A stretch of 64,000 nucleotides of DNA from an uncultured Thermoleophilia bacterium (GCA_963771025.1 CAVYRL010000003.1:354267-418266); one strand, 5' to 3'. Counted from the stretch's first letter, positions 4,435 through 64,000 are shown. Made by a program: numbers and translations. Notes: generated by a model from the sequence alone, not told the origin.

Positions 4435-6570
4435 TCAGCCTCTGCGGTCGGGAGCCCGACGTGACGCCGATGACGCGCCGACCGTGACGACGTCCTCCGG
4501 CGCGTCGACCGCCGGGACGGCGCCGGTGGGATCGTCGCGCAGGATCGCGGTCAGGGTGGTCACCATGAGCGGATCGAATTGGGTACCGGAGCAGGCCGCG
4601 AGCTCGGCGAGCGCGACCTCCTGCGACACCGCGCTGTGGTACGCCCGGCGCCGCGAGGTCATGGCCTCGAAGGCGTCGCAGACGAACACGATGCGTGAGC
4701 CCAGGGGGATCTGCTCTCCCGACAGTCCGTCCGGATATCCCTGGCCGTCCCACCGCTCGTGGCTGGAGCGGACCAGAGGCGCGATCGGCTCGAGGGCCGG
4801 CGCGGCGCGCAGGATGCGCTCGCCGATCAGCGTATGGCGGTGGATGAAGTCCAGCTCGGCCGCGTCGAGGCTGTCGGGCTTGCCCAGGATCGCATCCGGG
4901 ACGGCGATCTTGCCGATGTCGTGGAGCAGCGCCGCGCGCCGCACCCGGCCTCGCTCGGGGTCGTCGAGCCCGAGGCGCCGGGCGACCCGATCGGCGAGGT
5001 CCGAGACGCTGCCGACGTGGTCGCTGAGCCCGGATGAGCGCTCGGCGAGCGCCCGCACCAGCACGTTGACGCTCTGGCTGCCCGCGGACTGGCGGCCCAG
5101 GGTCTTGCGGGCGTACATCCGGGCGTCGGCGACCAGCATCGCCGCCTCGGGCGAGCTCGCGTCCTCCGGGATGAGGGCCACGCCGTGCGCGCCCGAGATC
5201 TGGAATCCCTCCCCGCGCTGCGTGAGCGCGTCCCGGGCCGCCGCCACGGCCTCCTTGAGGGCGGCCGGAGCGAGGGACGCGAGCACGCAGAACTCGTCGC
5301 CGCCGAGGCGGTAGACCCGGCCTCCGGGTATCGCGGCAACCAGACGGGCGGAGATCCGCACCAGCAGGGCGTCACCGGCCGGGTGGCCGAAGCGATCGTT
5401 GTAGGCCTTGAAGCCGTTCAGGTCGAGCAGCATGAGGGCGAGCGGGCGGGTCCAGTCCGCCGCTGCGATGGCCTCCTCGAGGTCGCATTCAAGGCGGCGA
5501 CGGTTGAAGAGCCCGGTGAGGCCGTCGGTGTCGGCCTCGCGAATGAGCAGCTCGTGCACCTCCTCGCGCTCGCGATGGCGCAGGTTGGACTGGGCGAACA
5601 GCACGCCGACCAGCAACGCAACCGCCGCCGAGCCGCCGATCAGCAGTATCACCGGGAGGGCCCACAGGGCCTCGGGGTGGGGCGTCGAGACCCGCGCGGT
5701 CCACCCGCTGTCGCCGACCGGAGCCTCGGCGACCGCATTGAGCATGGGCCCGCTGCCCGAATCGAAGATCTGTGCGGCGGGGCTGACGATCTCGAGACGA
5801 CTGCCGGCGGGGAGCAGCGCCAGCGGGGATCGGACCAGATGGGAGATGTTGAAGAGGCCGCCGAGGTATCCCCGCAGGCCGGCGCGCCGAGCGAGGATCG
5901 ACGCGGGCGCCGGATCCGGGCCGTAGACGGCGGCGAGCACCGCGACCGCCTCCGGCCGTCGGTTCGCCCCGAGTTGCAGCGCCGAGGTCACCACCGGCCG
6001 TCCCCCGTCACGAGCCGACGCAAGGCTCGGCCGAAGGGGCGCACTGGTCGCGATGTCGATCCCGACGGACGCCTGCGCGATGTCGGTGCGGGGCGCGACG
6101 AGGCTCAGGGGGAAGTAGTCCGCCCGCGCCGGGGCGGGCTGGAACGCGCCGGATGGAAGCGCATCGAGGATCGGCCGCCCAGACGCGCCCTCGAAGGACG
6201 CGCGATCGGCTGCCGAAACGCGCGGAGCCCAGCTGACCGACTGCGTGCTCACGCTCTCGAACGCAACCGTGGCGAACCGCGTGAAGTCGGCGGAGTCCAC
6301 GCCCTGGGGCGACGCCGCGAAGAGCCCGCGCAAACCGTTCAGCGCCCCTTCGGCGGAGTCGAGCTCACCGCCGAGATCGTTCGCCGTGCTCCGGGCCCAC
6401 GCCTCGCGTTGATGGCGCTGATCCCCGCGGATGTTGTGGACGACGCCGGCGGCCGCGGCGAACCCCGTCGCCAGCAGCAGCAGGACGACGACGACCTGGA
6501 AGGGCCGAAGGCTGAGCGGGATGCTCAGCACTCTGCGGCGAATCGACCGGAGCATCGTGCCGAGCGGCAT
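4435..6570 (-). CDS. Membrane CHASE-GGDEF-HD-GYP c-di-GMP enzyme
   Basis: Two TM helices flank a CHASE-like region (WAPRV, DYFP, GIDI); D.LTGL.NRR, intact GGDEF, HDIGK and HHERWDG.GYP-type motifs. Confidence 0.9.
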   Translation of the reverse strand: MPLGTMLRSIRRRVLSIPLSLRPFQVVVVLLLLATGFAAAAGVVHNIRGDQRHQREAWARSTANDLGGELDSAEGALNGLRGLFAASPQGVDSADFTRFATVAFESVSTQSVSWAPRVSAADRASFEGASGRPILDALPSGAFQPAPARADYFPLSLVAPRTDIAQASVGIDIATSAPLRPSLASARDGGRPVVTSALQLGANRRPEAVAVLAAVYGPDPAPASILARRAGLRGYLGGLFNISHLVRSPLALLPAGSRLEIVSPAAQIFDSGSGPMLNAVAEAPVGDSGWTARVSTPHPEALWALPVILLIGGSAAVALLVGVLFAQSNLRHREREEVHELLIREADTDGLTGLFNRRRLECDLEEAIAAADWTRPLALMLLDLNGFKAYNDRFGHPAGDALLVRISARLVAAIPGGRVYRLGGDEFCVLASLAPAALKEAVAAARDALTQRGEGFQISGAHGVALIPEDASSPEAAMLVADARMYARKTLGRQSAGSQSVNVLVRALAERSSGLSDHVGSVSDLADRVARRLGLDDPERGRVRRAALLHDIGKIAVPDAILGKPDSLDAAELDFIHRHTLIGERILRAAPALEPIAPLVRSSHERWDGQGYPDGLSGEQIPLGSRIVFVCDAFEAMTSRRRAYHSAVSQEVALAELAACSGTQFDPLMVTTLTAILRDDPTGAVPAVDAPEDVVTVGASSASRRAPDRRG

Positions 6571-9197: not shown

Positions 9198-9851
9198 ATG
9201 TGGATCCGCTCCGTCAACGTGGGGATGCCGCGGGAGATTCCCGGCACCGGCGGCGCGATCATCAGCGGCATCGTCAAGGAGCCCGTGTCCGGGCCCGTGG
9301 CGGTGGGCGCGACCAACCTCGCCGGCGACCGGCAGGCCGACCTCTCGGTGCACGGCGGGCTCGACAAGGCCGTGTACGCGTACCCGATCGAGCACTTCGG
9401 GTTCTGGAGGCGCGAGCTGCTGCGCGACGATCTCACTCCCGGGTGGTTCGGCGAGAACCTGACCACGGAAGGGGTGCTCGAGGACGACGTCCTGGTGGGC
9501 GACCTGCTGCGGGCGGGATCCGCTCTGCTCGAGGTGAGCCACCCGCGGGTCCCCTGCTTCAAGCTGGCCGCCCGCATGGGCGACCCCGGGTTCGGCAGGC
9601 CGTTCCTGCTCAGCGGGCGGGTGGGCTTCTACCTCCGGGTTCTGGAGGAGGGAGAGCTCGAGACGGGCGACCCCCTCACCCGGGAACGCCGTGGCGAGGG
9701 CGGCCTGAGCATCCGCACGGCGGCCCGGCTGCTCGACTCCGGGGCGAGCCCGGTCGACCTCGAGAGCGCGGCCGCGGTGCCGGCGCTGGCCGAGGGCTGG
9801 CGCGAGAACTTCGCGCTGCGGGCGGCGAAGCTCAGATCGCGGCGGCGATGA
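9198..9851 (+). CDS. MOSC domain protein (YiiM-like)
   Basis: GDRQAD..VHGG.DKAVY, FGENLT, PRVPCFKL and GFYLRVL..G motifs. Confidence 0.9.
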   Translation: MWIRSVNVGMPREIPGTGGAIISGIVKEPVSGPVAVGATNLAGDRQADLSVHGGLDKAVYAYPIEHFGFWRRELLRDDLTPGWFGENLTTEGVLEDDVLVGDLLRAGSALLEVSHPRVPCFKLAARMGDPGFGRPFLLSGRVGFYLRVLEEGELETGDPLTRERRGEGGLSIRTAARLLDSGASPVDLESAAAVPALAEGWRENFALRAAKLRSRRR

Positions 9852-10323
9852 CGATCAGCACGACGTAGCCGATCGCGTAGGCCCCGGTGAGGCCGTACAC
9901 CACCCCGCGCGATACCGAGCGGACCGTGAAGTCGCTGGTCGCGAGGAAGGCCAGCTTGACCAGATCGCCCGCCAGCATCAGCCCGGCGAACGCCAGCAGG
10001 AAGCCCCCGATGCCGGGATCGCGGGCGAGGGCGACGGTCATCGCCCAGTGACCGACGTTCATCGCGAGGATGAACACGACGCCCACCACCTCACGATCGG
10101 CCACGCGATCGGCGATGGCGGCCACCAGACCGAGCGAGAGCACCGCGAGGATGATCGTTCCGGCGAGGCGTACCCCGGAGGCACCGTCGGCCGGCTCGTC
10201 CAGGGCCGTCATCAGCGCTGCGATGCCGACGCCGATGCCGACGACCTTCAACGCCGTCTCGAGCCACGCCAGGGCCGGCCACTCGCCGACGTGCCAGGAA
10301 CGGGGTGGCGAGGCCTCGCTCAG
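9832..10323 (-). CDS. Integral membrane protein (about 5 TM)
   Basis: Hydrophobic C-terminal part of the long ORF. Start uncertain; CTG at 10323 overlaps the upstream stop. Confidence 0.65.
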   Translation of the reverse strand: MSEASPPRSWHVGEWPALAWLETALKVVGIGVGIAALMTALDEPADGASGVRLAGTIILAVLSLGLVAAIADRVADREVVGVVFILAMNVGHWAMTVALARDPGIGGFLLAFAGLMLAGDLVKLAFLATSDFTVRSVSRGVVYGLTGAYAIGYVVLIVIAAAI

Positions 10324-11141
10324 GGGGCCGTGCACGCGATCGGACCGCCGATGGGGATCACGTGGCGCACCCCCGATGTGAAGCCGGCGTCGCGGCTCAC
10401 CTCGACCGTGCTCGCGGCGCCGGCCGCGGTCGTCACGCGGTAGCGAGCCGTGTTGACGGGCGTGACGCGGGTCTCTACGCCGCTGCCGCAGTCGATGGCG
10501 ACCGCCTCGCGGATCAGGGCGAGATCGGCGGCCCGCGCGGCGGCGGTGATGCGCGCCTGCGGCGGCTGGGCGACGCCGGGGCCGAGCATGGCCAGCACGG
10601 CGACGACGGCCACGACGAGCAGACCGACCAGCACGAGGGTCCGGGCGAAGACGCCGGCGCGGCGTGACCGGCGCCAGGGAGCCCCGCCGGCGGGCAGTGG
10701 ATCGACGAAGCGGCCGCGCCGCGCCGGGGGCAGCAGGGCGACGATCGGCGCGGCGATCAGGGCGATGGCGACCCCGGCCTGGGACGCCTCCAGGCTCGCG
10801 AGGCTGAAGATCCGCAGCGGCAGCAGCAGCAGCGTCCAGGCCAGGCCCGCCCCGAGGACGGCCAGCCCCCGGCGCACACGCCCCCACGCCATCCAGGTGC
10901 GCCAGGCCCTCTGCCAGGGCGGCAGCGCGAGGTAGGCGTCCACGCGCCGGCGGCGCCAGAGTGCCATGGCGGTCTCGCCCACCGGGCGTCCCGCCGGCCC
11001 GAGCAGGGGCTCGAGTTGCTCCACCACCTCCGCCTCCAGCGCCTCTTGGCGCCGAAGCTGCGCCGCGGTGCGCTCGCGCTCCACGCGCTCACGCCGAGCG
11101 GCGGCGACCCCGGGGAGTCCGCGCGCGGCGCGGGAGCTCAT
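10320..11141 (-). CDS. Hypothetical membrane protein
   Basis: Starts 1 nt after the LOG stop; coiled N-terminus and three hydrophobic segments. Confidence 0.6.
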   Translation of the reverse strand: MSSRAARGLPGVAAARRERVERERTAAQLRRQEALEAEVVEQLEPLLGPAGRPVGETAMALWRRRRVDAYLALPPWQRAWRTWMAWGRVRRGLAVLGAGLAWTLLLLPLRIFSLASLEASQAGVAIALIAAPIVALLPPARRGRFVDPLPAGGAPWRRSRRAGVFARTLVLVGLLVVAVVAVLAMLGPGVAQPPQARITAAARAADLALIREAVAIDCGSGVETRVTPVNTARYRVTTAAGAASTVEVSRDAGFTSGVRHVIPIGGPIACTAP

Positions 11142-11142
11142 G

Positions 11143-11874
11143 TCACCGCGTCCGAGGGGTCGGGCCCAGCGCGAGCTCCACGATCTCCTGCGCGCTGTCG
11201 GAGATCTGGATCAGGTCCATGTCCCCCCGGCTGATGAGGCCCTCCTCCAGCAGCCGCGCCTGGATCCACCGGACGAGACCCGCCCAGTAGGAGCCTCCGC
11301 AGAGCACGACGGGGAAGCTCAGGGCCTTGCCGGTCTGGATCAGAGTGAGCGACTCGAACAGCTCGTCGAGCGTCCCGAAGCCGCCCGGGAACACGATGTA
11401 GGCCTCGGAGTACTTGACGAACATCGTCTTGCGCACGAAGAAGTAGCGGAAGGCGATCGCGAGGTTGACGTACTCGTTGATCGCCTGCTCGTGCGGCAGC
11501 TCGATGGTGCACCCGACCGACATGCCGCCGGCCTCGCTGGCGCCCCGGTTGGCCGCCTCCATGATGCCGGGGCCGCCGCCCGTGATCACGGCGTAGTCGC
11601 GCTCCACCAGCAGCTTCGCGACCTCACGGGCGAGGTCGTAGTGGGGCGTGTCGGCCGGCGTGCGCGCCGAGCCGAAGATGGAGACGGCCGGCCCGACGCG
11701 CGCGAGAGCGTCGAATCCGTCCACGAACTCGCCGAGGATCCGGAGCGCGCGCCAGGGCTCGCTGTGGAGGAACTCAGAACTCTCGGGGCGGGTGAGCAGG
11801 CTCGCGTCGGCGTGCCCGATCGCCGCCTCGCCGGGGCCCCGGGCGGCCAGCCGTCCGCTGCGGGCGAGCCTCAC
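11143..11874 (-). CDS. LOG family (TIGR00730-type) nucleotide phosphoribohydrolase
   Basis: SIFGSAR, TGGGPGIMEAANRGA, FRYFFVRK.MF and PGGFGTLDELFE motifs; GTGA overlap with the upstream gene. Confidence 0.9.
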   Translation of the reverse strand: MRLARSGRLAARGPGEAAIGHADASLLTRPESSEFLHSEPWRALRILGEFVDGFDALARVGPAVSIFGSARTPADTPHYDLAREVAKLLVERDYAVITGGGPGIMEAANRGASEAGGMSVGCTIELPHEQAINEYVNLAIAFRYFFVRKTMFVKYSEAYIVFPGGFGTLDELFESLTLIQTGKALSFPVVLCGGSYWAGLVRWIQARLLEEGLISRGDMDLIQISDSAQEIVELALGPTPRTR

Positions 11875-12398
11875 GAGGGAACCGCGTCGACGCGGCGCAC
11901 GACGTCGTCGAGCGGGAGGCGCCGGGCGCGGGCGCTCCACTGCTCGGGAGTCCGCCGCGCCGGATCGCGCGGCGTCGCAGGCGCCCCGAACGAGAGCACC
12001 ACCACGGCGCGGTCCGGATCGGAGATGCCCGTCGCGCGGTGCAGGGCGTCGGCGTCGGCGACCCCGTTGGGGCAGCAGGCGACGCCGTCGGCCCAGGCGC
12101 TCAGCATCATGCTCTGGGCGGCGCGACCGGCGTCGAAATCGACCAGGCCGCCGCCGGGGCTCACGGTCAGGACCACCACCAGCCCCGCCGTCAGGACGTT
12201 GTCGGCGCGGTACACGGCGCGGGCGACCGCGGGGACGGCATCGCCCTCGACGACGATGAAGCGTGTGGGCTGGCGGTTGCGCGCGCTTCCCACGAGCCGG
12301 CCGGCGTCGAGAATCCGACGGGCCACCTCGTCGGGGACCGGCGCACCATCGTATGACCGCGCGTCGCGCATGCTGGCCACGGTGAGGTGCGCGTCCAC
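11871..12398 (-). CDS. Nitroreductase family protein
   Basis: R..RSY, RILDAGR..GSARNRQP and FDAGRAAQSMML.AW..GV motifs. Confidence 0.85.
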   Translation of the reverse strand: MDAHLTVASMRDARSYDGAPVPDEVARRILDAGRLVGSARNRQPTRFIVVEGDAVPAVARAVYRADNVLTAGLVVVLTVSPGGGLVDFDAGRAAQSMMLSAWADGVACCPNGVADADALHRATGISDPDRAVVVLSFGAPATPRDPARRTPEQWSARARRLPLDDVVRRVDAVPS

Positions 12399-12407
12399 GA
12401 CCTCAGA

Positions 12408-12875
12408 CTAGACGACGCCTCCGGGATCCGGCCGTCGGGTGTGCGACACGCAGAAGGGCGTGCCCCAGATGGGCTCGCGCGCGCACGGCTTGCCCTTGCG
12501 GTTGAGGGCGGCGCAGCGCGGGGTGCTACCGGCGATGCCCGAGGCGCCGCGCTCGGCCTCGAAGAAGGCCCGGGCGCGCGAGACGTGCGCGTCGATCACG
12601 AGCGAGGCGCGCAGCTGATCCTGGGCGCGCAGCAGGGAGCGGGCGGTGGAGAACAGCGACCGCGCGACCATCGGCTCCGAGCGGGGATCGGCCGCCACCC
12701 GGGAAATCCCCGAGTCGCACACCTCGAGCAGGTAGCGCTCCGCCCATCCGGGACGGCGGGGGTCCGGCGCGAGCGACGGTACCAGCGCCTTCCAGAGGGA
12801 GCGCGTGTAGCGGCGGATGGCCACGGCGCGGCTCGGTGCGGTGTCCGGAAGCGCGGTGGGGAGCTCATTGATCAT
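12408..12875 (-). CDS. Helical hypothetical protein with C-terminal Cys3His zinc-finger-like motif
   Basis: C-terminal CAALNRKGKPCAREPIWGTPFCVSH; ATG at 12875 lies 7 nt after a candidate -10 box. Confidence 0.65.
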   Translation of the reverse strand: MINELPTALPDTAPSRAVAIRRYTRSLWKALVPSLAPDPRRPGWAERYLLEVCDSGISRVAADPRSEPMVARSLFSTARSLLRAQDQLRASLVIDAHVSRARAFFEAERGASGIAGSTPRCAALNRKGKPCAREPIWGTPFCVSHTRRPDPGGVV

Positions 12876-12882
12876 CGCGGTT

Positions 12883-12911
12883 AGTAGACCACCATCTGGA
12901 TCGGCTGTCAA
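12883..12911 (-). promoter_or_regulatory. Candidate sigma-A promoter (TTGACA-17 bp-TCTACT), probably near-leaderless
   Basis: Perfect TTGACA at 12911-12906, 17-bp spacer, TCTACT at 12888-12883, ATG 7 nt downstream. Confidence 0.55.
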
Positions 12912-13019
12912 GGTTTTGTCGAGGGTGTACGGAAGTGCACAAGACCTTGTCTCTGCACATTGCAACACGATGTCCGGACAATCTGGACAACATGTTCAGA
13001 CTATGCGCATCATGTGTCC

Positions 13020-13901
13020 GTGTCTGCCGCCGCCTCAACCTCCGGCCTGATGCGCATCGGCGAGCTGAGCCGGCGCCACGGCGTGAGTCCCGACCTCCTA
13101 CGGGTGTGGGAGCGTCGCTACGGCCTGCTCCAGCCCGAGCGCACCGACGGCGGCTTCCGCCTCTATACGTCGCGCGACGACGAGCGCGTCCGGGTGATGC
13201 GCCACAACCTGGGGCTCGGGTATACGGCGGCGGTGGCCGCCCGCATCGCCCTGAGCGCCCCGGCCCCGGTGGATCGGCCCGATACGGACAACGCCCTCGA
13301 GGCCGCCCGCGCGGAGCTCGGCGAGCAGCTGGAGAACTTCCAGGACGCCGAGGCGCAGAAGGTCCTCGATCGCATCTTCTCGATGTTCAGCACCGAAGCC
13401 GTGCTGCGCGACGTGGTGATCCCGTATCTCCACGATCTGGGCGAGCGTTGGGCGACGGGCGAGGTCTCGGTGGCCCAGGAGCACTTTGCGAGCGCGGTGC
13501 TGCGCGGGCGCCTGATGGGCCTGGCCCGCAGCTTCGACGTCGGCGTCGGCCCTCGGGCGGTGCTGGCGGGCCCCCCGGGCGAGCGCCACGACCTGGGCCT
13601 GCTGTGCTTCGGCATCGGCCTGCGCGAGAGGGGCTGGCGCGTCACCTTCCTGGGTGGCGACACCCCCATCGGGGCGGTGCAAGGAGCGGCCGCCCGCCTG
13701 CTGCCCGCGCTCGTCGTGCTCTGCGCCGAGCAGGAACCACCCCTGCGGGACGCGCTGCCCGAGATCAGCGTGCTCGCGTCGCAGCACCCCGTGGCCCTGG
13801 CGGGCCGGGCCGCCTCGGCGGAGATGGCGCGCGCGACCGGGGCGCGCCTGCTCCAGGACGCTCCGATGGCCGCGGCAGCGCGCATCGCCTCGGGGGGCTG
13901 A
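13020..13901 (+). CDS. carH: CarH/LitR-type MerR regulator with cobalamin-binding photosensor domain
   Basis: MerR HTH (RIGELSRR..V...LLRVWERRYGLL.PERTDGGFRLY), W-x9-EH (WATGEVSVAQEH) and ExH (GERHDLG) motifs. Start GTG 13020 or ATG 13050. Confidence 0.85.
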   Translation: MSAAASTSGLMRIGELSRRHGVSPDLLRVWERRYGLLQPERTDGGFRLYTSRDDERVRVMRHNLGLGYTAAVAARIALSAPAPVDRPDTDNALEAARAELGEQLENFQDAEAQKVLDRIFSMFSTEAVLRDVVIPYLHDLGERWATGEVSVAQEHFASAVLRGRLMGLARSFDVGVGPRAVLAGPPGERHDLGLLCFGIGLRERGWRVTFLGGDTPIGAVQGAAARLLPALVVLCAEQEPPLRDALPEISVLASQHPVALAGRAASAEMARATGARLLQDAPMAAAARIASGG

Positions 13902-13910
13902 CGCGACCGA

Positions 13911-15389
13911 TCACTCTGCCTGGGAGACCACCCTCAGGGGGGGCCGGGGTGCCGTCGTCTGCCACGAGTCGAGCCGGTTGAGGCCGTCGAGGGCCGCCGT
14001 CTTGTAGCACTCGGCCAGCGTGGGGTAGTTGAACACCGCGTCGACGAAGTGCTCGACCGTGCCGCCGTAGGTCATCACGGCCTGGCCGATGTGGATCAGC
14101 TCACTCGCGCCCTCGCCGATGATGTGGACGCCCAGCAGCTCGTGGGTGTCCCAGTGGAAGATCAGCTTCAGCAGGCCGGTGCGGTCGCCGATGATCTGGC
14201 CGCGGGCGATCTCGTTGTACTGGGCCTTGCCGACCTCGTAGGGCACGCCGTCGCGCGTGAGCTCCTCCTCGTTGCGCCCGACGGTCGAGATCTCGGGGAT
14301 CGTGTAGATCGCGTACGGCACCAACGAGGGCACGCTGCGCGCCGCGATGCCGAACGCGTGGCAGGCCGCCAGGCGGCCCTGCTCGAGCGAGGTCGAGGCC
14401 AGGCTCGGAAAGCCGATCACGTCGCCGACCGCGTACACGTGCGGCACCTCGGTGCGGTAGTGATCGTCCACCGTCAGCCGGCCCCGGTCGTCGGCGGTGA
14501 TGCCCGCCGCCGACAGGTTGAGGCTGCCCGTCGCGCCGGTGCGGCCGATCGAGTAGAAGGCCTTCTCGGCGACGATGTGCTTGCCGCTCGCCAGGTGCAC
14601 CCGCACCGCCCCGTCGTGGCCCTCGTCCACGTCGAGCGCGCTGACCTCCTCGCCCAGCCACAGGGTCATGCGGCCGCGCCGCATGTGGAAGGCGAGCGCG
14701 TCCATGATCTCGGAGTCCATGTACGACAGCAGGCGCGGTCGTTTGTCGACGAGCGTCACCCGCACGCCCAGCGCGGAGAACATGCTGGCGTACTCGAGGC
14801 CGATCACCCCGGCGCCGATCACGACGAGCGTGCGCGGCAGACGGTCGAGGCTCACCGCGTCGTCGCTCGTGAGGATGCGCCGGCCGTCGAACGTGACGCT
14901 CTCGTCGCGCGTGGCCGTGGTGCCGGTGGCCAGAACGATGTTCGCCCCGCTGATGGTCTGCCGGCCGTGGCCGTCGGGGTCCTCGATCTCGATGGTGTGC
15001 GGATCGACGAAGGCCCCGTGGCCGTTGAAGATGTCGATGTCGTTGCGCAGCAGCTGATGCCGCACGACGTCGGTCTCGTTGCGGACCACCTGATCGGCCC
15101 GGAAGATCAGATCCTCCATGCCGATGTGCTGCTTGGCGGTGTACGACGATCCGTAGAAGCCGCGGTCGCGGTAGCCCGTCAGGGCCATCGCGGCCTCGCG
15201 CAGGGTCTTGGACGGGATGGTCCCGGTGCGCACGCAGACGCCCCCGACCCCCGTGGTGCGCTCGATCATCGCGACTTTCTTGCCCAGCTTGGCCGACTGT
15301 ATGGCCGCGCGCTGACCACCCGGGCCCGACCCGATCGCGATCAGGTCGTAGTCGAAGGACGCCCCGTTCATGGAGATTCGATCGGCCAT
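13911..15389 (-). CDS. sthA: Soluble pyridine nucleotide transhydrogenase
   Basis: GSGPGGQRAAIQSAKLGK, GGVCVRTGTIPSKTLREA and VFNYPTLAECYKTAALDG motifs. Start may be 15371. Confidence 0.93.
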   Translation of the reverse strand: MADRISMNGASFDYDLIAIGSGPGGQRAAIQSAKLGKKVAMIERTTGVGGVCVRTGTIPSKTLREAAMALTGYRDRGFYGSSYTAKQHIGMEDLIFRADQVVRNETDVVRHQLLRNDIDIFNGHGAFVDPHTIEIEDPDGHGRQTISGANIVLATGTTATRDESVTFDGRRILTSDDAVSLDRLPRTLVVIGAGVIGLEYASMFSALGVRVTLVDKRPRLLSYMDSEIMDALAFHMRRGRMTLWLGEEVSALDVDEGHDGAVRVHLASGKHIVAEKAFYSIGRTGATGSLNLSAAGITADDRGRLTVDDHYRTEVPHVYAVGDVIGFPSLASTSLEQGRLAACHAFGIAARSVPSLVPYAIYTIPEISTVGRNEEELTRDGVPYEVGKAQYNEIARGQIIGDRTGLLKLIFHWDTHELLGVHIIGEGASELIHIGQAVMTYGGTVEHFVDAVFNYPTLAECYKTAALDGLNRLDSWQTTAPRPPLRVVSQAE

Positions 15390-28702: not shown

Positions 28703-29431
28703 TCACACGATGCTGACCGGCACCCCGGGCCGTATGCGTTTGGCGATCCACGCGATGCCGCCGTCGCCGAGTCGCACGCAGCCGTGCGAGGCGGCCGTGC
28801 CGAGCCGGCCGCCGATGTTGCGGACGCCGTGGATGGCGACCTGCCCAGGACCTCCATCGAACTCCTGGAACACCGGGGAGCGCGCGCTGAGGGCGAGGGC
28901 GAACGGAGCGCCGGGGCGTCCGGCGGAGAGCCGCACGTTCTCCTCGACGAAGTACTCGCCGCGCGGCGTCGGCGTGGACGGAGCGCCCACGATCGCCCTC
29001 AGGTCGCGCACTCGCAGCCCCTTCCGATAGACCCTCACGTGGCGGCTGCGCAGGTCGATCACGATCCGCCACGGCGTGGCGGAGATGCGGGTCGATGTGG
29101 TGCGGATCCAACCGGTCGGCGGCGGTTTGGCCCCACGCAGGGCACGGCCGGGAAGGCGCACCCGCAGCCAGTGGCGCGCCCGCAGGTCGGTGCTGTGATC
29201 GATGACCGGCAGCAGCGTGCGGCCGCCCGTGATCGGCCTCCGCGGGGCGACGCGGGCCACGACCCGGGAGGTCGTGCTCGGCCGGGCATGGGCCACGTGG
29301 ACGGTGAGAACCGTCGCGATCTCCTGATCCACGCCGGCGCCCGCGGCCTGCGCTCCGGCGGGCAGGGCCACGGCGCAGGCGGCGACCACCGCCGCCCGCG
29401 CAAGCGTCGAGCGCAGCGACACGGCCGTCAA
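28703..29431 (-). CDS. Secreted L,D-transpeptidase (YkuD family)
   Basis: IVIDLRSRHV, IVGAPSTPTPRGEY and AIHG...SHGCVRL catalytic motifs. TTG start overlaps the upstream stop (TTGA). Confidence 0.9.
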   Translation of the reverse strand: MTAVSLRSTLARAAVVAACAVALPAGAQAAGAGVDQEIATVLTVHVAHARPSTTSRVVARVAPRRPITGGRTLLPVIDHSTDLRARHWLRVRLPGRALRGAKPPPTGWIRTTSTRISATPWRIVIDLRSRHVRVYRKGLRVRDLRAIVGAPSTPTPRGEYFVEENVRLSAGRPGAPFALALSARSPVFQEFDGGPGQVAIHGVRNIGGRLGTAASHGCVRLGDGGIAWIAKRIRPGVPVSIV

Positions 29432-30636
29432 CCCGTGAAGCCGACGGTGGTACGCGGCGTCAGGAACCGGACCCGGCGCGACGGAACCCGCGCCCGCCCC
29501 TCGGCACATGCGCGGAATCGCATTCGGAGCGTGGAGGCGGGGGTCGCATCCGTGTAGAGGACGCGCGCCCTGACGATGTGGATGCCCCGCCTGGACCTGA
29601 CAACCGCACGGAACGGCGCCGTGCGACGGTTCGCGATCGTGAGGCCGTCGAGCGAGAAGACGACCCGCCGGATGTTGACCCCGGTCACGCGGACCGGGAA
29701 CGTGTCCTGCACGCAGCGGCTGACTCCGAAGCGCGACACCGAGTTGCCGATCGAGCGCGGGATCGTCGAGAAGACGCTCGTCCCGTTGCTCGCCGTCGGA
29801 CCGATGCCACCTCCGCCGCCCGGCGGGGTGCCGCCCGGCGCGGTGCCGCCCGGCGCGGTGCCGCCCGGCGTGGTGCCGCCCGGCGTGCTCGTCGCGCAGT
29901 TGGCGGCGGTGATCCGGTCGTTGATGAGGGTGACCGCGCCGTTGCGCGCCAGCGCCCGCCCCTGGATGGTCACGCCGTTCTTCACCGAGATCGACTGCAG
30001 GGCGAGGATGCTGCCCACGAAGGTGGTGGTGGTGCCGAGCGTCGCGGAGCTGCCGATCTGCCAGAAGACGTTGCACGGCTGAGCGCCGTTGACCATTCTC
30101 ACGCGGCTCGCCGACGCGGTCGTCAGCGTCGAACCGGCCTGGAACACGAAGACGGCGTCCGGGTTGCCCTGGGCGTCGAGGGTCAGCGCACCGGTCAGCC
30201 CGACCGACGAGGCGGACTTGTAGACGCCCGAGGTGAGGGTCAGGCCGCCGAGGTCGCCGGCGATGCTCACGGGCGGGGTCCGCCCGGCGGCGTCGTTGTA
30301 CGCGGTCGTGAGGTCCGACTGGGCCTGGAGGGCCGGTCCGTCAGCGGCGTGGATCGTGCCGTTGACGGTACCCGGCGGGAAGCCGGTGATGGCGGCCCCG
30401 GGGGTCAGTCCCAGGTTGCCGTTGATGACCGAGGGGCCGGTGTTGGTGATGGTGGAACCGGCCAGCACGGCGTAGGCGTCGGCGGTGCCGAGCCCAACGG
30501 GCGCCTGGGCGGCGAAGGCGCTTGTCGCGAGCAGCGAGGAGGCTGCGCAGGCGACGCCCACGAGGCTGATGCGACGCGCGACGCCGCCTCCGGCCGCTCG
30601 CGAGGAGCCTGGCGTGGTGCGGGTCGTGCGACGCAT
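29428..30636 (-). CDS. Secreted ice-binding (DUF3494) protein with TPGG linker and basic C-terminal domain ending GFTG
   Basis: LGTADAYAVLAGSTITNTG, LTSGVY, VFVFQAGSTL, NVFWQIGSSATLG and QGRALAR motifs. Confidence 0.92.
   Translation of the reverse strand: MRRTTRTTPGSSRAAGGGVARRISLVGVACAASSLLATSAFAAQAPVGLGTADAYAVLAGSTITNTGPSVINGNLGLTPGAAITGFPPGTVNGTIHAADGPALQAQSDLTTAYNDAAGRTPPVSIAGDLGGLTLTSGVYKSASSVGLTGALTLDAQGNPDAVFVFQAGSTLTTASASRVRMVNGAQPCNVFWQIGSSATLGTTTTFVGSILALQSISVKNGVTIQGRALARNGAVTLINDRITAANCATSTPGGTTPGGTAPGGTAPGGTPPGGGGGIGPTASNGTSVFSTIPRSIGNSVSRFGVSRCVQDTFPVRVTGVNIRRVVFSLDGLTIANRRTAPFRAVVRSRRGIHIVRARVLYTDATPASTLRMRFRACAEGRARVPSRRVRFLTPRTTVGFTG
29816..29887. repeat. About five copies of a 15-bp tandem repeat encoding (T/A)xPGG linker
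   Basis: CCGCCCGGCG(C/G/T)GGTG units. Confidence 0.85.
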
Positions 30637-54702: not shown

Positions 54703-56292
54703 CTACGGGATGACCACGGTCGCCCCGCGCGCGGTCACGCGCGGGGCGTTGCCCCCGCCGGCCGTGACCCGGTTGACGTACCCGCCGGTCCGGGCCCTGC
54801 GGTTCAGGCGGGTGGTGATCCGGAAGATCCTGCGCGCGCCCGGCGCGAGGACGGACATCGTCCAATGGAGCCGATGCCCGGCGAGGATCCCGTGGCCACG
54901 CGCCCCGAACGTCGCGCCTTTCGCGAGGTAGTCGTTCACCTGGACGCGGGAGGCGGCGACACGACCGCAGTTCGACACGACGATCGTCCATCGGACCCCG
55001 CCGCCCCGGCGAACGGAGCGGCGGCTGGCCGTGTTGGTGATGCACAGTGCCGCCGAGGCGGCCGGCGCCGCGGCGCCGGGCTTCCCGGTGGGCCCGTCGG
55101 CGCCCCTCAGACCGGGCGGACCCGGTAGCCCGGTGAGGCCCGTGGGGCCGATGGGGCCGGTGAGGCCGGTGGGGCCGGCATCGCCGGTGAGGCCCGCGGG
55201 GCCGATCGGGCCGGTGGCGCCGTCGGCGCCGGTGGGACCGGTATCGCCGGTGGGGCCGGTATCGCCGGTGAGGCCTGCGGGGCCGATCAGGCCGTCGGCG
55301 CCGATCAGGCCGTCGGCGCCGGTGAGGCCGGTGGGGCCGTCAGCGCCGGTGAGGCCCGCGGGGCCAATCAGGCCGTCGGGGCCGATCAGGCCGTCGGCGC
55401 CGGTGAGGCCGGTGGGGCCGTCAGCGCCGGTGGGGCCCGCGGGGCCGATCAGGCCGTCGGCGCCGGCGGGCCCGGTGGCGCCATCAACGCCGTCAGCGCC
55501 GGCGGGGCCCGCGGGGCCGACGGGCCCCGGCACGAACACCGTCTCCCTGCACGCGGTGCGAACGGCCGTCGAGGCCATGGTGACGGTGCCCGTGTCCGCC
55601 AGGATCCGTCCATCGACGCGGCTTCCAGCCCCCACCGAGACGCCGACGAAGGCCATCACGGTGCCGGCGAACTTCGCCGTCGCACCGATCGTCGTCGAGC
55701 CGTTGACGGCCCAGAAGACGTTGCAGGGATCGGCTCCGTTGATCAATTCCACCACCGCCGAGGCGCCGACCGTGAGAGCCCCCCCGATCTGGAGAATGAA
55801 CACGGCGTCCGGGTCGCCGCCGCCGTCGAGCGTCAGGGTCGTGCCCGCCGTGAAGCCCACCGCCGTCGTCGAGTTGTAGACGCCCGGCGACAGCGAGGCC
55901 CCGCCGAGCTCGGCGACGAGGTCGGGCCCCGGGGACGCGGGCGCGAGCCTCGCGTCTCCGTATGCGAGATTCAGAGCCGCCTTGGCCGCGATGGCATCCG
56001 CGTCACCGAGGTGGGTCTCTCCGAGCACGATCGGGGGAGTGTCACCGGCCAGCACCCCCCCGATGCCGATGCCGAGGTTCTCGGACATGGCCGTGGCCCC
56101 GTTGCTCGTGACCGAGTTGCCGAGGACCGAGTAGGAGCCCGCCGCGCCCATGTCAACCGGATCGACCGCGAGGGCCGGTGCGGAAAACGCCAGCGCGAGG
56201 ACCGACACCGACAACGCCACGAGCGGGCGTCGCACCGCTCGCGTGCGGGTGGGACGAGCGACGGGGCGGGCCGAGGGCGCGGGAACGGGCAT
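54703..56292 (-). CDS. Secreted ice-binding (DUF3494) protein with collagen-like stalk and DUF11-like C-terminal domain
   Basis: Signal peptide; [25 protein letters not shown] and DGRILA motifs; 51 Gly-X-Y triplets; W.I.V.N.G...V.V.D.L motif. Confidence 0.88.
55069..55527 (-). repeat. Uninterrupted collagen-like (Gly-X-Y)51 repeat
   Basis: Counted from GPV to GAA; built from recurring [12 protein letters not shown] and GAD-GPT blocks. Confidence 0.92.
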
Positions 56293-56427: not shown

Positions 56428-57036
56428 TCAGCCCGTGGCCTTTTCCAGCTGCCTCGCGACCGTCAACCAGTTGACGACGTTCCAGAAGGCGTCGATGTAG
56501 TCGGGCCGCCGGTTCTGGTAGTTCAGGTAATACGCGTGCTCCCAGACGTCGATGCCGAGGAGAGGCGTGTGGCCGTCGTTGAGAGGGGTGTCCTGATTGG
56601 GGGTGGACAGCACGACGAGGCCGGTGCCGTCGTGGGCGAGCCACGACCAACCGCTCCCGAACCGCTTCAGACCGGCGTCCTTCATCTCGCGCTTGAGCTC
56701 GGCGAGGCTCTCGAAGGTGTCCTCGATGGCCTTGGCCAGGGCACCGCTCGGCTCGCCGCCGCCGTCGGGGCTCATCGTCTCCCAGAAGAGGGAGTGGTTC
56801 GCGTGGCCGCCGCCGTTGTTGCGGATGGCGGCCCGCTTGCCCTCGTCGATGAGATCGAGGTTGTCGAGCACCTGCTCGAGCGGCTTGCCATCCCACTCGG
56901 TGCCCTCGATGGCCGCGTTCAGGTTGCTCACGTAGGTCTGGTGGTGCTTGTCGTGATGGAGCTTCATCGTCGCCTCGTCGATGTGGGGCTCCAGCGCGTC
57001 GTAGGCGTAGGGGAGGTCGGGCAGCTCGTACGGCAT
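56428..57036 (-). CDS. sodA: Superoxide dismutase, probably Mn-type
   Basis: [39 protein letters not shown] and DVWEHAYY motifs. Confidence 0.96.
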
Positions 57037-57245: not shown

Positions 57246-57968
57246 CTACGCGTCCAGCGCCAGCGAGCCGTCCACGACCTGCTGGGCGACCTCCCCCAGC
57301 CGCGTGGAGCTGCGACGCGCGTAGAGGCGAAGCCGCGCGAACGCCTGATCCGGCGTTTCGCCGGCTCTCTGGGCGACGATGCCCTTGGCCTGCTCGATGG
57401 TGATCCTCGTCTGCAGGGCCTCCTGCATGTGATCCGCCACCGTCTGGGCGTCGTTGGCGCTCCTGCTCTGCAGGACGGCGATCGTGGCGACGTCGGCGAG
57501 AGCCTGGGCCGTGGCGATGTCCGATTCGCTCAGGGCGAAGGGTTCGGTCCGAAAGAGATTCATCGCGCCGAGCACCCGACCGCGCAGCCGCAGCGGGAAG
57601 GCGTGCGCCGCCCGGAAACCGGCGGCGGCCGCCACGGGGGCAAACCGGGGCCAGCGGACGTTCTCGTCCTCGAGGTTCAGGGTCGTCACCGACCTCCCGA
57701 GGTGGAAGCAGTCGCGGCAGGGACCCTCGTCCGACTGGATCTGGAACAGCTCAACCGCCTCGGTGGCCTCGCTCGTGGCCGCCATCAGGTGCAGGGTGCC
57801 GTCGGAGTCGGCCAGCAGGAGGCCCGCTGCGGCGGTATCGAGCAGCTCGACGCACCGCTCGGTGAGGAGCACCATCAGATCGACGACATCGAAGTCCTCC
57901 ACCAGGCAGTCCGTCAACTCGACGAGGGTCTGTGCGAGTCGCGTGTCCGCGGGTCGTGGGCCTGCCAT
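57246..57968 (-). CDS. GAF + ANTAR domain protein
   Basis: GAF (EGPC.DC) plus ANTAR (ALQTRITIEQAKGIVA...AFARLR.YAR). Confidence 0.93.
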   Translation of the reverse strand: MAGPRPADTRLAQTLVELTDCLVEDFDVVDLMVLLTERCVELLDTAAAGLLLADSDGTLHLMAATSEATEAVELFQIQSDEGPCRDCFHLGRSVTTLNLEDENVRWPRFAPVAAAAGFRAAHAFPLRLRGRVLGAMNLFRTEPFALSESDIATAQALADVATIAVLQSRSANDAQTVADHMQEALQTRITIEQAKGIVAQRAGETPDQAFARLRLYARRSSTRLGEVAQQVVDGSLALDA

Positions 57969-62051: not shown

Positions 62052-63872
62052 TCATCGGCCGCGCCTGACGTCGGGAAACGTCCGATCCAGGGGCGCCGGC
62101 CGTTTCAGTCGGTAGCCCTGCGCGAAATCGACGCCGAACTCGGAGAGCACCGCGAGGCAGGCGCCCGATTCCACGCCCTCGGCGATGGTGCGCATGTGAA
62201 AGGCTCGGGCGAGGCTGACGATGGCCTCCACCACGTGCTGGCACGACGGGTCCGTGTGGAGGTCCCTGATGAAGCTCTTGTCGATCTTCAGGTAGTCGAT
62301 GTCCAGGTTCTTGACGTAGGTGAGGCCGCCGTAGCCCGCGCCGAAGTCGTCGAGGGCGAACTCGCAGCCCAGCTCGCGCATGCCCTCGATGAACTCCCGC
62401 GCGGAGCGCTCGTCCGTGATGACCGCGGTCTCGGTCAGCTCCATGATGATCAGGCGGGGATCGGCGCCCGAGGCGTCGATGATCTCGGCGAACGCGTTAA
62501 CCATCGACGGGTCCCCTACGGACGCCGCGGACAGGTTCACCGAGACGCGGTGGCCCCGAGCCGCAAGCCCCGCCCCCTGCAGCATCACCCACTGGTCGAT
62601 TTGCGCGATCAGCCCGGAACGCTCAGCCGCGGGAAGGAACTGCCCCGGGGCCTTCAGCTGGCCGGTCGGTTCGCGCATGCGGATCAGCAGCTCGTGCGCG
62701 TGCACGGCGCGCGTACCCGGGTCGACCACCGGCTGGGCGTAGAGCACCAACTCGTCCTGCGCCAGCGCGCGGCGCACGCGAGCGACCGTCGCGGAGTAGG
62801 CGCTCTCGTTCTTGAGCTTCTGCCCCTGCGCCTTCTGCGCGGAGATGTCCGAGAACACGATCACCGAGCCGGCGTCCCCGTGCTCGTTGGCGAACGGAGA
62901 GACCGTGTATGCCACCGGGAGCTCGAGCCCGTCGCGCCGGATGAAGACGTCGTCGGGGATGCGCGCGACCCTCCTCTCTGCACGGGCCCGATCGATCCGG
63001 CTCGGGCGTCCGCGGCGCCGGCCGGGACGGTGCCGTTCGACGACCTCCGACACCGGGCGCCCGAGGAGCTCGGCCTCTGTCCACCCCAACATCGTCTCTG
63101 CGGCGGTGTTGACCAACTGGACCATGCCCTTCTCGTCGAGCGCGAACACGCCCTCGCCGATGCCCCGCGTCAGGGCCGAGATGTAGTCGCGCGCGCGCCG
63201 GGTCTCGTTCTCCACCACGACCCGGGCGCCGATGTCCATCGCGACGCTGAGAACGCCGGTGCGCGCGTCCTCGTCGCCCAGCGCGCTCAGGCGCACTTCG
63301 ACCGGCACACACGAGCCATCCTTGCGACTCGCCAGCAGCGACCCCTCCCAGCGGCCGTGGCGGCCGACGATCTCGGTGCGGCGCGCACCGTTCGCGGCAC
63401 TGTCCGCCAGTGCCGCGAACTCGTCGTGTACCGCCCCAATCACCTCGGCGGCGCCCCAGCCGTAGAGGTGCTCCGCGCCCGCGCTCCAGTACGTGACCCT
63501 GCCCGCGGTGTCCCTCGCGATGATGGCGGCCCCGACGCCGTCGAGGAACCGGAAATCCGACGGCACGCCGCCCACCACCTGTGCCGGCGGGGCCGCGGCG
63601 CCCGTGATCGTGCCGCGCGCGATCGGCCCCTCCCCGAAGGGACCCTCCATCACGTCGACGGTCGCCATCGCACCGCCCGGCTCGTCGCAGAGGGGGCGCG
63701 CGATGGTCGCCCACGCCCGGGCGGACGCCGCCGCGCCGACGTCGGCCAGTATGCGCGCCAGGCGGGAGGGGCTCGGACGCGGCCCGTCGATCGGCCCCAT
63801 CGTCCGGAGGGCCACCTCGATCCGGCGCAGGCCGTGGCCGAGATCCCTCAGATCGACGTCGAACGCGCCCAT
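62052..63872 (-). CDS. PAS-PAS-EAL c-di-GMP phosphodiesterase
   Basis: Two PAS domains; LYAQP, ELLIR, VNLS, ELTE, ALDDFG.GY, LKIDKSF, AEGVE and QGY motifs. Start may be 63668. Confidence 0.92.
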   Translation of the reverse strand: MGAFDVDLRDLGHGLRRIEVALRTMGPIDGPRPSPSRLARILADVGAAASARAWATIARPLCDEPGGAMATVDVMEGPFGEGPIARGTITGAAAPPAQVVGGVPSDFRFLDGVGAAIIARDTAGRVTYWSAGAEHLYGWGAAEVIGAVHDEFAALADSAANGARRTEIVGRHGRWEGSLLASRKDGSCVPVEVRLSALGDEDARTGVLSVAMDIGARVVVENETRRARDYISALTRGIGEGVFALDEKGMVQLVNTAAETMLGWTEAELLGRPVSEVVERHRPGRRRGRPSRIDRARAERRVARIPDDVFIRRDGLELPVAYTVSPFANEHGDAGSVIVFSDISAQKAQGQKLKNESAYSATVARVRRALAQDELVLYAQPVVDPGTRAVHAHELLIRMREPTGQLKAPGQFLPAAERSGLIAQIDQWVMLQGAGLAARGHRVSVNLSAASVGDPSMVNAFAEIIDASGADPRLIIMELTETAVITDERSAREFIEGMRELGCEFALDDFGAGYGGLTYVKNLDIDYLKIDKSFIRDLHTDPSCQHVVEAIVSLARAFHMRTIAEGVESGACLAVLSEFGVDFAQGYRLKRPAPLDRTFPDVRRGR

Positions 63873-64000
63873 GGCGCGCGTGGGGGAGGCGCCCCATGCG
63901 ATGTGCTGGTGGACGCAGAGAAAGGCCGGAGGCGCATATCCGGCAAGGGCACGGCATTCGATGCCGATCAGCCACCGGTGGCCGCCCAGGCGGTGGACGT

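Follow-up and report, generated by a model that had tools for sequence, protein, structure and literature searches.

We analyzed a 64,000-nucleotide stretch of DNA from an uncultured Thermoleophilia bacterium (GCA_963771025.1, CAVYRL010000003.1:354267-418266), referred to below in its full length as the window, in which a plus-strand gene for a MerR-type regulator with a B12-binding domain (carH) faces away from a packed minus-strand operon of five genes (g1 to g5, 12875-9832). The map was drawn from open reading frame (ORF) listing and family scans of the 64 kb (Table 1). The records of the homologues name Miltoncostaeaceae and Thermoleophilia, placing the host as a Miltoncostaeaceae (Thermoleophilia) bacterium, and the nearest DNA comes from soil, peat and sediment metagenomes. 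The conserved genes on either side of the locus, namely tadA and convergent genes for a MOSC protein and a pyridine-nucleotide-disulphide oxidoreductase, are unrelated to it. As judged from its sequence, the locus is probably a known type of light switch with a different operator geometry and a different cargo.

Table 1. Positions of the regulator gene, the candidate operators and promoters, and the operon genes in the window.
Feature	Position	Strand	Description
carH-like gene	13020-13901	+	MerR winged helix-turn-helix, four-helix bundle and Rossmann B12-binding domain; Pfam MerR_1, MerR, B12-binding_2
Site A, candidate operator	12896-12923		CTGGAT(cggc)TGTCAAG(gttt)TGTCGAG; two tandem 11-bp repeats and an inverted left half-site
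Site B, candidate operator	12983-12999		Palindrome CTGGACA-N3-TGTTCAG (7-3-7); overlaps the carH -35 element
g1 operon promoter	12883-12911	-	-35 TTGACA 12911-12906, 17-nt spacer, -10 TCTACT 12888-12883
Putative carH promoter	12984-13013	+	-35 TGGACA 12984-12989, 18-nt spacer, -10 CATCAT 13008-13013
g1	12408-12875	-	155 residues, soluble; four-helix bundle and C-x9-C-x10-C-x2-H C-terminal knuckle, conserved Cys53
g2	11871-12398	-	175 residues; nitroreductase-family (flavin mononucleotide, FMN) oxidoreductase, PF00881, 69 bits
g3	11143-11874	-	Type II LOG (nucleoside 5'-monophosphate phosphoribohydrolase); GTGA overlaps the g2 stop
g4	10320-11141	-	273-residue membrane protein: charged N-terminal region, 2-3 transmembrane segments, small C-terminal domain with two Cys
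g5	9832-10335	-	About 165-residue membrane protein, five transmembrane helices (hydropathy)

The regulator and the operon it faces

The regulator gene encodes a protein that aligns over its full length with Thermus thermophilus CarH (TtCarH, also called LitR; 5C8D/3WHP, E = 1e-38, residues 5-285) and end to end with the NCBIfam model NF052513 TransRegCarH (model positions 3-267 of 274, 169 bits). It has the same full-length three-domain architecture as TtCarH (5C8D/5C8E/5C8F), and the RxWERRY, Wx9EH, ExHxxG and GxxxP motifs are common to both proteins. These motifs are among the published signatures of CarH and of light-responsive cobalamin domains (PMC9304148, PMC11796333). The recognition helix reads RVWERRY (residues 18-24; Pfam MerR_1, 54 bits), with W20 through Y24 invariant among 26 homologues, and the Wx9EH motif is WATGEVSVAQEH (residues 134-145, W134/E144/H145, nt 13449-13484; PF02607, 43 bits), with no variation at E144 or H145 and at least 90% conservation of W134 in the same set. 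The ExH motif, E178-R-H180 (nt 13581-13589), is invariant or nearly so. The signature of light-responsive cobalamin domains, GxxW, EH, GxxH and GxxxP (PMC11796333), is complete, as GERW (131-134), EH (144-145), GERH (177-180) and GGDTP (202-206), with key positions invariant or nearly so in the 26 homologues. The original prediction, made from the DNA sequence alone, had proposed a CarH-type regulator on the basis of W-x9-EH and ExH; both motifs are in place, and the sequence signatures of light-responsive adenosylcobalamin (AdoCbl) binding accompany them. By these signatures the regulator is a full-length CarH/LitR class I homologue that is predicted to bind AdoCbl.

Translation of carH could start at GTG 13020 (293 residues) or at ATG 13050 (283 residues). 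The Met of the window's MRIGEL is Leu in most homologues, which carry an in-frame N-terminal extension, so the start is probably GTG 13020.

The divergent genes correspond to those originally predicted, a zinc-finger protein, a nitroreductase, a LOG protein and two membrane proteins: g2 and g3 match their families (PF03641, 118 bits, for g3), g1 ends in a Cys/His knuckle, and g4 and g5 contain hydrophobic segments. The first three of the four spacings in that prediction are also correct (g1/g2, +9 nt; g2/g3, -4 nt, GTGA; g3/g4, +1 nt). The last, a further -4 nt at the g4/g5 junction, holds only if g5 starts at CTG 10323, and a start at GTG 10335 gives a 16-nt overlap. We looked for promoter-like or terminator-like sites inside 9500-12870 and found none.

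Candidate operators over two divergent promoters

The intergenic region between carH and g1 spans 144 bp. We compared the corresponding regions from 27 loci, 25 of them non-identical, and computed a consensus for each conserved block on 23 non-identical regions. Two blocks, sites A and B, are near-invariant (about 2 bits per position), and their flanks cannot be aligned across the 23-25 non-identical regions. The consensus of site A is c.gGACag..TGTCAAGggTcTGTCgAG (GGACA-N5-TGTCAAG-N4-TGTCGAG); its inverted left half-site is degenerate in the window's subgroup and GGACA is intact in most relatives. In the window, the 11-bp repeats occupy 12906-12927 and read TGTCAAGGTTT and TGTCGAGGGTG on the plus strand. 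On the minus strand the tandem repeats, ACCCTCGACAA and AACCTTGACAG, include the -35 element of the g1 promoter, the TGTCAA of site A being TTGACA on the other strand. The pattern TGTCNAG-N4-TGTCNAG occurs once in the 64 kb, against 0.12 occurrences expected by chance.

Site B is a palindrome with the consensus CTGGACA.g.tGTCgAG (CTGGACA-N3-TGTCsAG), and in the window's subgroup a further half-site, GGACAA, precedes it by 9 bp (12976-12981). Both sites are present in Miltoncostaea oceani. Scans with position weight matrices gave a single match in the window for each site, and across about 177 kb from related loci the matches fell only in the carH-g1 intergenic region, except for half-matches downstream of carH at four loci. 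The half-match to the operator matrix, CTGGACAGGCCGTTGAT, lies about 100-700 bp past the 3' end of carH (L005:10945, L083:4851, L094:3004, L095:4250) and is probably a conserved coding motif of the neighboring gene.

The experimentally defined CarH operator repeat is 5'-nnnnTnnACAn-3' (PMC9304148), and the half-sites of both A and B read TnnACA on the minus strand, fitting this consensus. The 11-bp repeats over the -35 element, as originally predicted, are thus present, conserved across the family and of the CarH type. That account of the operator was incomplete, as it had overlooked both the inverted left half-site and the second operator at 12983-12999.

The predicted promoter TTGACA-17-TCTACT can be read directly at 12911-12883. 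Its TTGACA is invariant in relatives, in which a hexamer resembling a -10 element also recurs, 6-8 nt ahead of the start codon. The g1 ATG (12875) lies 7 nt past the -10 element, and the g1 mRNA is therefore predicted to be leaderless. On the other strand, TGGACA-18-CATCAT is the only σ70-like site that we found in 9500-14200 (0.1 expected). The carH GTG lies 6 nt past its -10 element, so that the carH mRNA is likewise predicted to be leaderless. This promoter geometry is shared by four related loci (L001, L003, L081 and L082). The sequence ATGCGCATC occurs twice in 13003-13058, at 13003 and 13050. We also considered a leaderless upstream ORF of 12-15 codons, starting at ATG 13003 or 13012 and ending in TGATG on ATG 13050; neither L003 nor L081 keeps it, and it probably arose by chance.

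Taken together, we consider it rather probable that the locus is an autoregulated CarH/LitR class I switch that would occlude both divergent leaderless promoters until light arrives. In the dark, AdoCbl-loaded CarH oligomers would bind the two operators in the 144-bp region; occupancy of site A would cover the g1 -35 TTGACA, occupancy of site B would cover the carH promoter core, and bound CarH would block RNA polymerase at both promoters. Light would photolyze AdoCbl and the CarH oligomer would dissociate, allowing both promoters to fire, with the result that more CarH is made together with the g1, nitroreductase, LOG, g4 and g5 products. Light probably switches on genes other than the usual pigment genes here. 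AdoCbl binding, the light response, repression and co-transcription of the operon are all inferred from sequence. Activation of the MerR type, by spacer distortion, was rejected for the window, given spacers of 17-18 nt and an overlap of each site with a -35 element.

Several observations weigh against an AdoCbl-dependent light switch. The TransRegCarH score lies below the 400-bit equivalog cut-off, and the protein is therefore a member of the CarH family, not an equivalog of the curated set. Against the classic Rossmann B12 motif (D/ExHx2G/P-x41-SxT/V-x22-27-GG), it keeps ERHDLG with the correct x41 spacing, with CAE at the SxT/V position (SxV in TtCarH) and AG at GG. The Pfam B12-binding family PF02310 reaches 17 bits against a cut-off of 32 (32.1) bits. 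Two functional residues of TtCarH also differ: His132, the light-state ligand, is Ala in the window protein, and Gly160, at the tetramer interface, is Asp, a change that could mean a dimeric dark form. Site A combines an inverted pair with one direct repeat, unlike the mapped CarH operators with their 3-4 tandem repeats. In other subgroups the site B palindrome lies between different putative -35 and -10 elements, and this variation in its position makes the assignment of the carH promoter less secure. Scans of about 40 ORFs of the window and of RNA families gave no cobalamin riboswitch and no B12, crt or photolyase gene, the first two being absences that count on the same side. The sequencing runs that contain the window sequence are DNA metagenomes only, holding at most 14% of its words, with no transcript match.

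The divergent Rossmann motif (CAE for SxT/V, AG for GG), the PF02310 score below cut-off and the lack of a His after the Trp of Wx9EH would also suit a cobalamin-availability sensor, or a light-independent CarA-like repressor, acting on the same operators. We regard this as unlikely. An intact Wx9EH marks CarH, whereas CarA-type proteins lack its Trp (PMC9304148), and W, E and H are all conserved here; moreover, AdoCbl held in such a pocket would be intrinsically photolabile.

Conservation of the neighborhood and comparison with other CarH loci

A scan of a genome collection with the CarH alignment yielded 80 loci, of which L001-L005 are the closest and L006-L080 more distant. In all five of the closest loci (64-85% identity, Miltoncostaeaceae or Thermoleophilia metagenome-assembled genomes), carH is divergent from g1-nitroreductase-LOG, usually followed by g4, g5, MOSC and tadA. 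A metagenome scan with the g1 alignment yielded a further set of 26 loci, and carH is divergent in each of the 21 that have enough upstream DNA. The order g1-nitroreductase-LOG is invariant in every locus as far as the contig reaches. Cultured M. oceani (CP064356.1:3200930-3217391) has the identical arrangement, which makes the predicted switch directly testable. Conservation of the neighborhood, proposed as a check on the original prediction, is therefore found in the genome loci (5/5), the metagenome loci (21/21) and M. oceani. On the sequences surveyed, the g1-nitroreductase-LOG-g4-g5 set beside carH is restricted to Miltoncostaeaceae. No paper retrieved in our literature search refers to CarH and LOG together.

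The 75 distant loci come from Solirubrobacterales, Gaiellales, Kribbella and Conexibacter. We called their genes by codon-position GC content and clustered the neighbors; carH, which lies at about 10001 in most of these loci, was callable in 65 of the 75. No crt gene lies within four genes of carH in any of the 65 loci with called neighbors, which indicates that absence of crt is normal for the actinobacterial CarH branch. Carotenoid-synthesis families are likewise missing from the recurrent carH neighbors, which comprise NmrA/MMPL (n = 30), fasciclin (n = 24), DUF378 (n = 22), SDR/SRPBCC (n = 18), amine oxidase (n = 15), DUF1365/cyclopropane fatty-acid (CFA) synthase (n = 15) and photolyase (n = 6). 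Most of the 75 loci carry 2-4 tandem 11-bp TGTnnA repeats just upstream of carH, usually beginning with TGTCAAG, and an operator beside carH is thus the ancestral condition and the norm for the family.

These actinobacterial loci (47-55% CarH identity) resemble the window in having a divergent target operon, no crt gene and repeats that start with TGTCAAG. They differ in the neighbors, which are DUF378-fasciclin, amine oxidase-DUF1365-CFA synthase-SDR/SRPBCC, NmrA/MMPL or photolyase instead of g1-nitroreductase-LOG, and in the operators, which are all direct repeats, palindromes being found only on the Miltoncostaeaceae side. The proposal of a light-induced output unlike the known ones is therefore borne out in part: the gene set does differ from that of other loci, but the absence of crt is not in itself unusual. 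As read from these alignments, the peculiarity of Miltoncostaeaceae is the gene set together with the partly palindromic operators.

At four of the distant loci, carH is followed immediately, on its own strand, by a gene for a g5 homologue (39-46% identity; L010:10891-11304, L023:10894-11304, L025:10885-11289 and L043:3489-3896; Gaiellales and 'Actinomycetes' metagenome-assembled genomes). These four loci have no g1, nitroreductase or LOG gene, and an HtaA-like gene is divergent from carH. As the four are unrelated, they provide an independent link between g5 and CarH. This link bears on whether CarH controls only itself and g1, the nitroreductase, LOG, g4 and g5 genes having a promoter or promoters of their own and being neighbors by descent. 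Such limited control would agree with the g1-g2 gap, which in more distant members of the family reaches about 45-75 nt, with the variable presence of g4 and g5, and with the nature of type II LOG as a widespread housekeeping-type gene. We think it quite improbable, given the short gaps and overlaps along the whole operon, the lack of internal promoter-like or terminator-like sites, the invariant g1-nitroreductase-LOG order and the separate association of g5 relatives with carH.

Among characterized systems, that of T. thermophilus is similar in that its carH is divergent from the target and a TnnACA half-site lies in 11-bp register over the -35 element. Its target is the carotenoid gene crtB, in contrast to the g1-nitroreductase-LOG-g4-g5 operon, and its operator consists of three tandem direct repeats, compared with an inverted pair plus a direct repeat (site A) and a 7-3-7 palindrome (site B) in the window. 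The myxobacterial CarH/CarA operators (Myxococcus xanthus, Cystobacter, Sorangium) also mix true and pseudo repeats and include inverted repeats over a -35 TTGACA, and Cystobacter CarH forms dimers instead of tetramers (PMC9304148). These operators all control carotenoid genes, however, their proteins have only family-level identity with the window protein, and the CarS-type antirepressor of the myxobacterial systems is not present here. The class II/III LitR proteins of Pseudomonas and Burkholderia are likewise MerR-type repressors with light-induced non-carotenoid outputs, for example photolyase, furan/cyclopropane fatty-acid synthase, folE and some genes of unknown function (PMC9758184 and references therein). 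They have no functional B12 domain and detect light with the help of a LOV partner or in an unknown way (PMC9758184), and their reported targets include no LOG, no nitroreductase of this kind and no homologue of g1, g4 or g5.

The locus suggests that, throughout one actinobacterial family, a CarH operator of the Actinomycetota-wide type has come to stand next to a different operon, whose products are a flavoenzyme, a nucleotide N-glycosidase, two membrane proteins and an orphan protein of the metal-binding kind. To our knowledge, work on B12-dependent CarH has dealt almost entirely with the switching of carotenoid genes and with its use as an optogenetic part. In the 65 nearest actinobacterial loci whose neighbors were called, carH is never beside crt, and B12 photoreception in soil Actinomycetota is therefore probably wider in its physiology than pigment control. 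The inverted half-site pair bears on how CarH oligomers, whether dimers or tetramers, read DNA.

Operon products and possible outputs

For a locus controlled by a CarH switch in this way, we infer a physiological output in which small molecules and the membrane, not pigments, are the targets of a photo-oxidative-stress response; its parts would be the FMN oxidoreductase, the LOG nucleotide N-glycosidase and the two membrane proteins, with g1 perhaps in an accessory or regulatory role.

By sequence, g2 is a small generic protein of the nitroreductase family, with 8CQT as the closest PDB entry (E = 2e-9). We examined it as a candidate BluB, which would link the operon to the B12 lower ligand, and rejected this assignment: the BluB model TIGR02476 scores 33.7 bits against a cut-off of 150 and covers only residues 8-67 (the N-terminal FMN motif), and BluB structures are absent among the PDB matches of g2. 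By family, g3 is a type II LOG whose substrate specificity is a prediction. It lies above the family cut-offs (PF03641; TIGR00730, 150.8 bits against 96.35), matches 5WQ3 (E = 4e-78), 5ZI9 and T. thermophilus TT1465 in the PDB, and contains both catalytic motifs, GGGPGIM and PGGFGTLDE (GGGxGxM and PGGxGTxxE).

We found no Pfam match for g1, even at E<=5. An AF2 model (predicted local distance difference test score, pLDDT, 82.5) consists of four helices followed by the Cys/His knuckle, and a fold search with it against the PDB gave no significant match (best E = 1.2). Profile searches assign g1 to a family that has more than 5000 members, each about 140 residues long. Distant members in Conexibacter and Solirubrobacteraceae match DUF5763 (PF19067; P0465 and P0476, 26.5-27.1 bits against 26.3), a family that g1 itself does not match; the NCBIfam model HGG_STG matches g1 residues 121-145 weakly (15.6 bits against 29). 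Four distant members (L107-L110) have neither carH nearby nor TnnACA repeats upstream, and the link between g1 and carH is specific to the Miltoncostaeaceae subfamily.

Relay regulators stand under CarH or LitR in several bacteria: Myxococcus has CarS (PMC9304148), Streptomyces LitS and Thermus LdrP. Characterized CarH/LitR systems often have such a secondary regulator as the first gene under CarH, and g1 is promoter-proximal, the only lineage-specific gene of the operon, and a basic, Arg-rich four-helix bundle with a CCCH knuckle. On these grounds g1 could be the real output, a light-induced regulator (an anti-repressor, or a protein that binds a sigma factor or RNA polymerase) that relays the signal to unlinked genes, with the enzymes as passengers. 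We consider this possible but doubtful, as g1 shows no homology or fold match to any regulator and its distant family members occur in unrelated contexts that lack both a nearby carH and upstream CarH repeats. A relay through g1 would also be compatible with the CarH switch proposed above.

Neither membrane protein could be assigned to a family (g4, no Pfam or NCBIfam family; g5, no family match). g4 is present in most but not all relatives. An alignment of g5 shows conserved charged residues in the helices, at E26, K30, R56, D76-R77, H96, K127 and R139, and its single-sequence model is poor (pLDDT 58).

A protein with CHASE, GGDEF and HD-GYP domains is encoded at 4435-6570 on the minus strand, 3.3 kb beyond the end of the operon. 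CHASE is a cytokinin-sensing fold, and LOG releases cytokinin bases. By analogy, light might be coupled to a purine-base (cytokinin-type) signal, in which derepression by CarH would let LOG free an N6-modified adenine that acts through the CHASE-GGDEF-HD-GYP protein on cyclic di-GMP turnover, with g1, g4 and g5 as accessory factors. This coupling, suggested by proximity and domain precedent, seems very improbable; the CHASE gene occupies the same position only in the closest relative, L003, and the LOG-CHASE link was set aside.

Elsewhere in the window, two Ice_binding-like (PF11999) proteins are encoded on the minus strand (29428-30561 and 54703-56235), the second of which also has collagen triple-helix repeats and DUF11. 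The same strand encodes an Fe/Mn superoxide dismutase (56428-57036), a GAF-ANTAR regulator of the antiterminator type (57246-57917) and a PAS-EAL protein (62052-63998).

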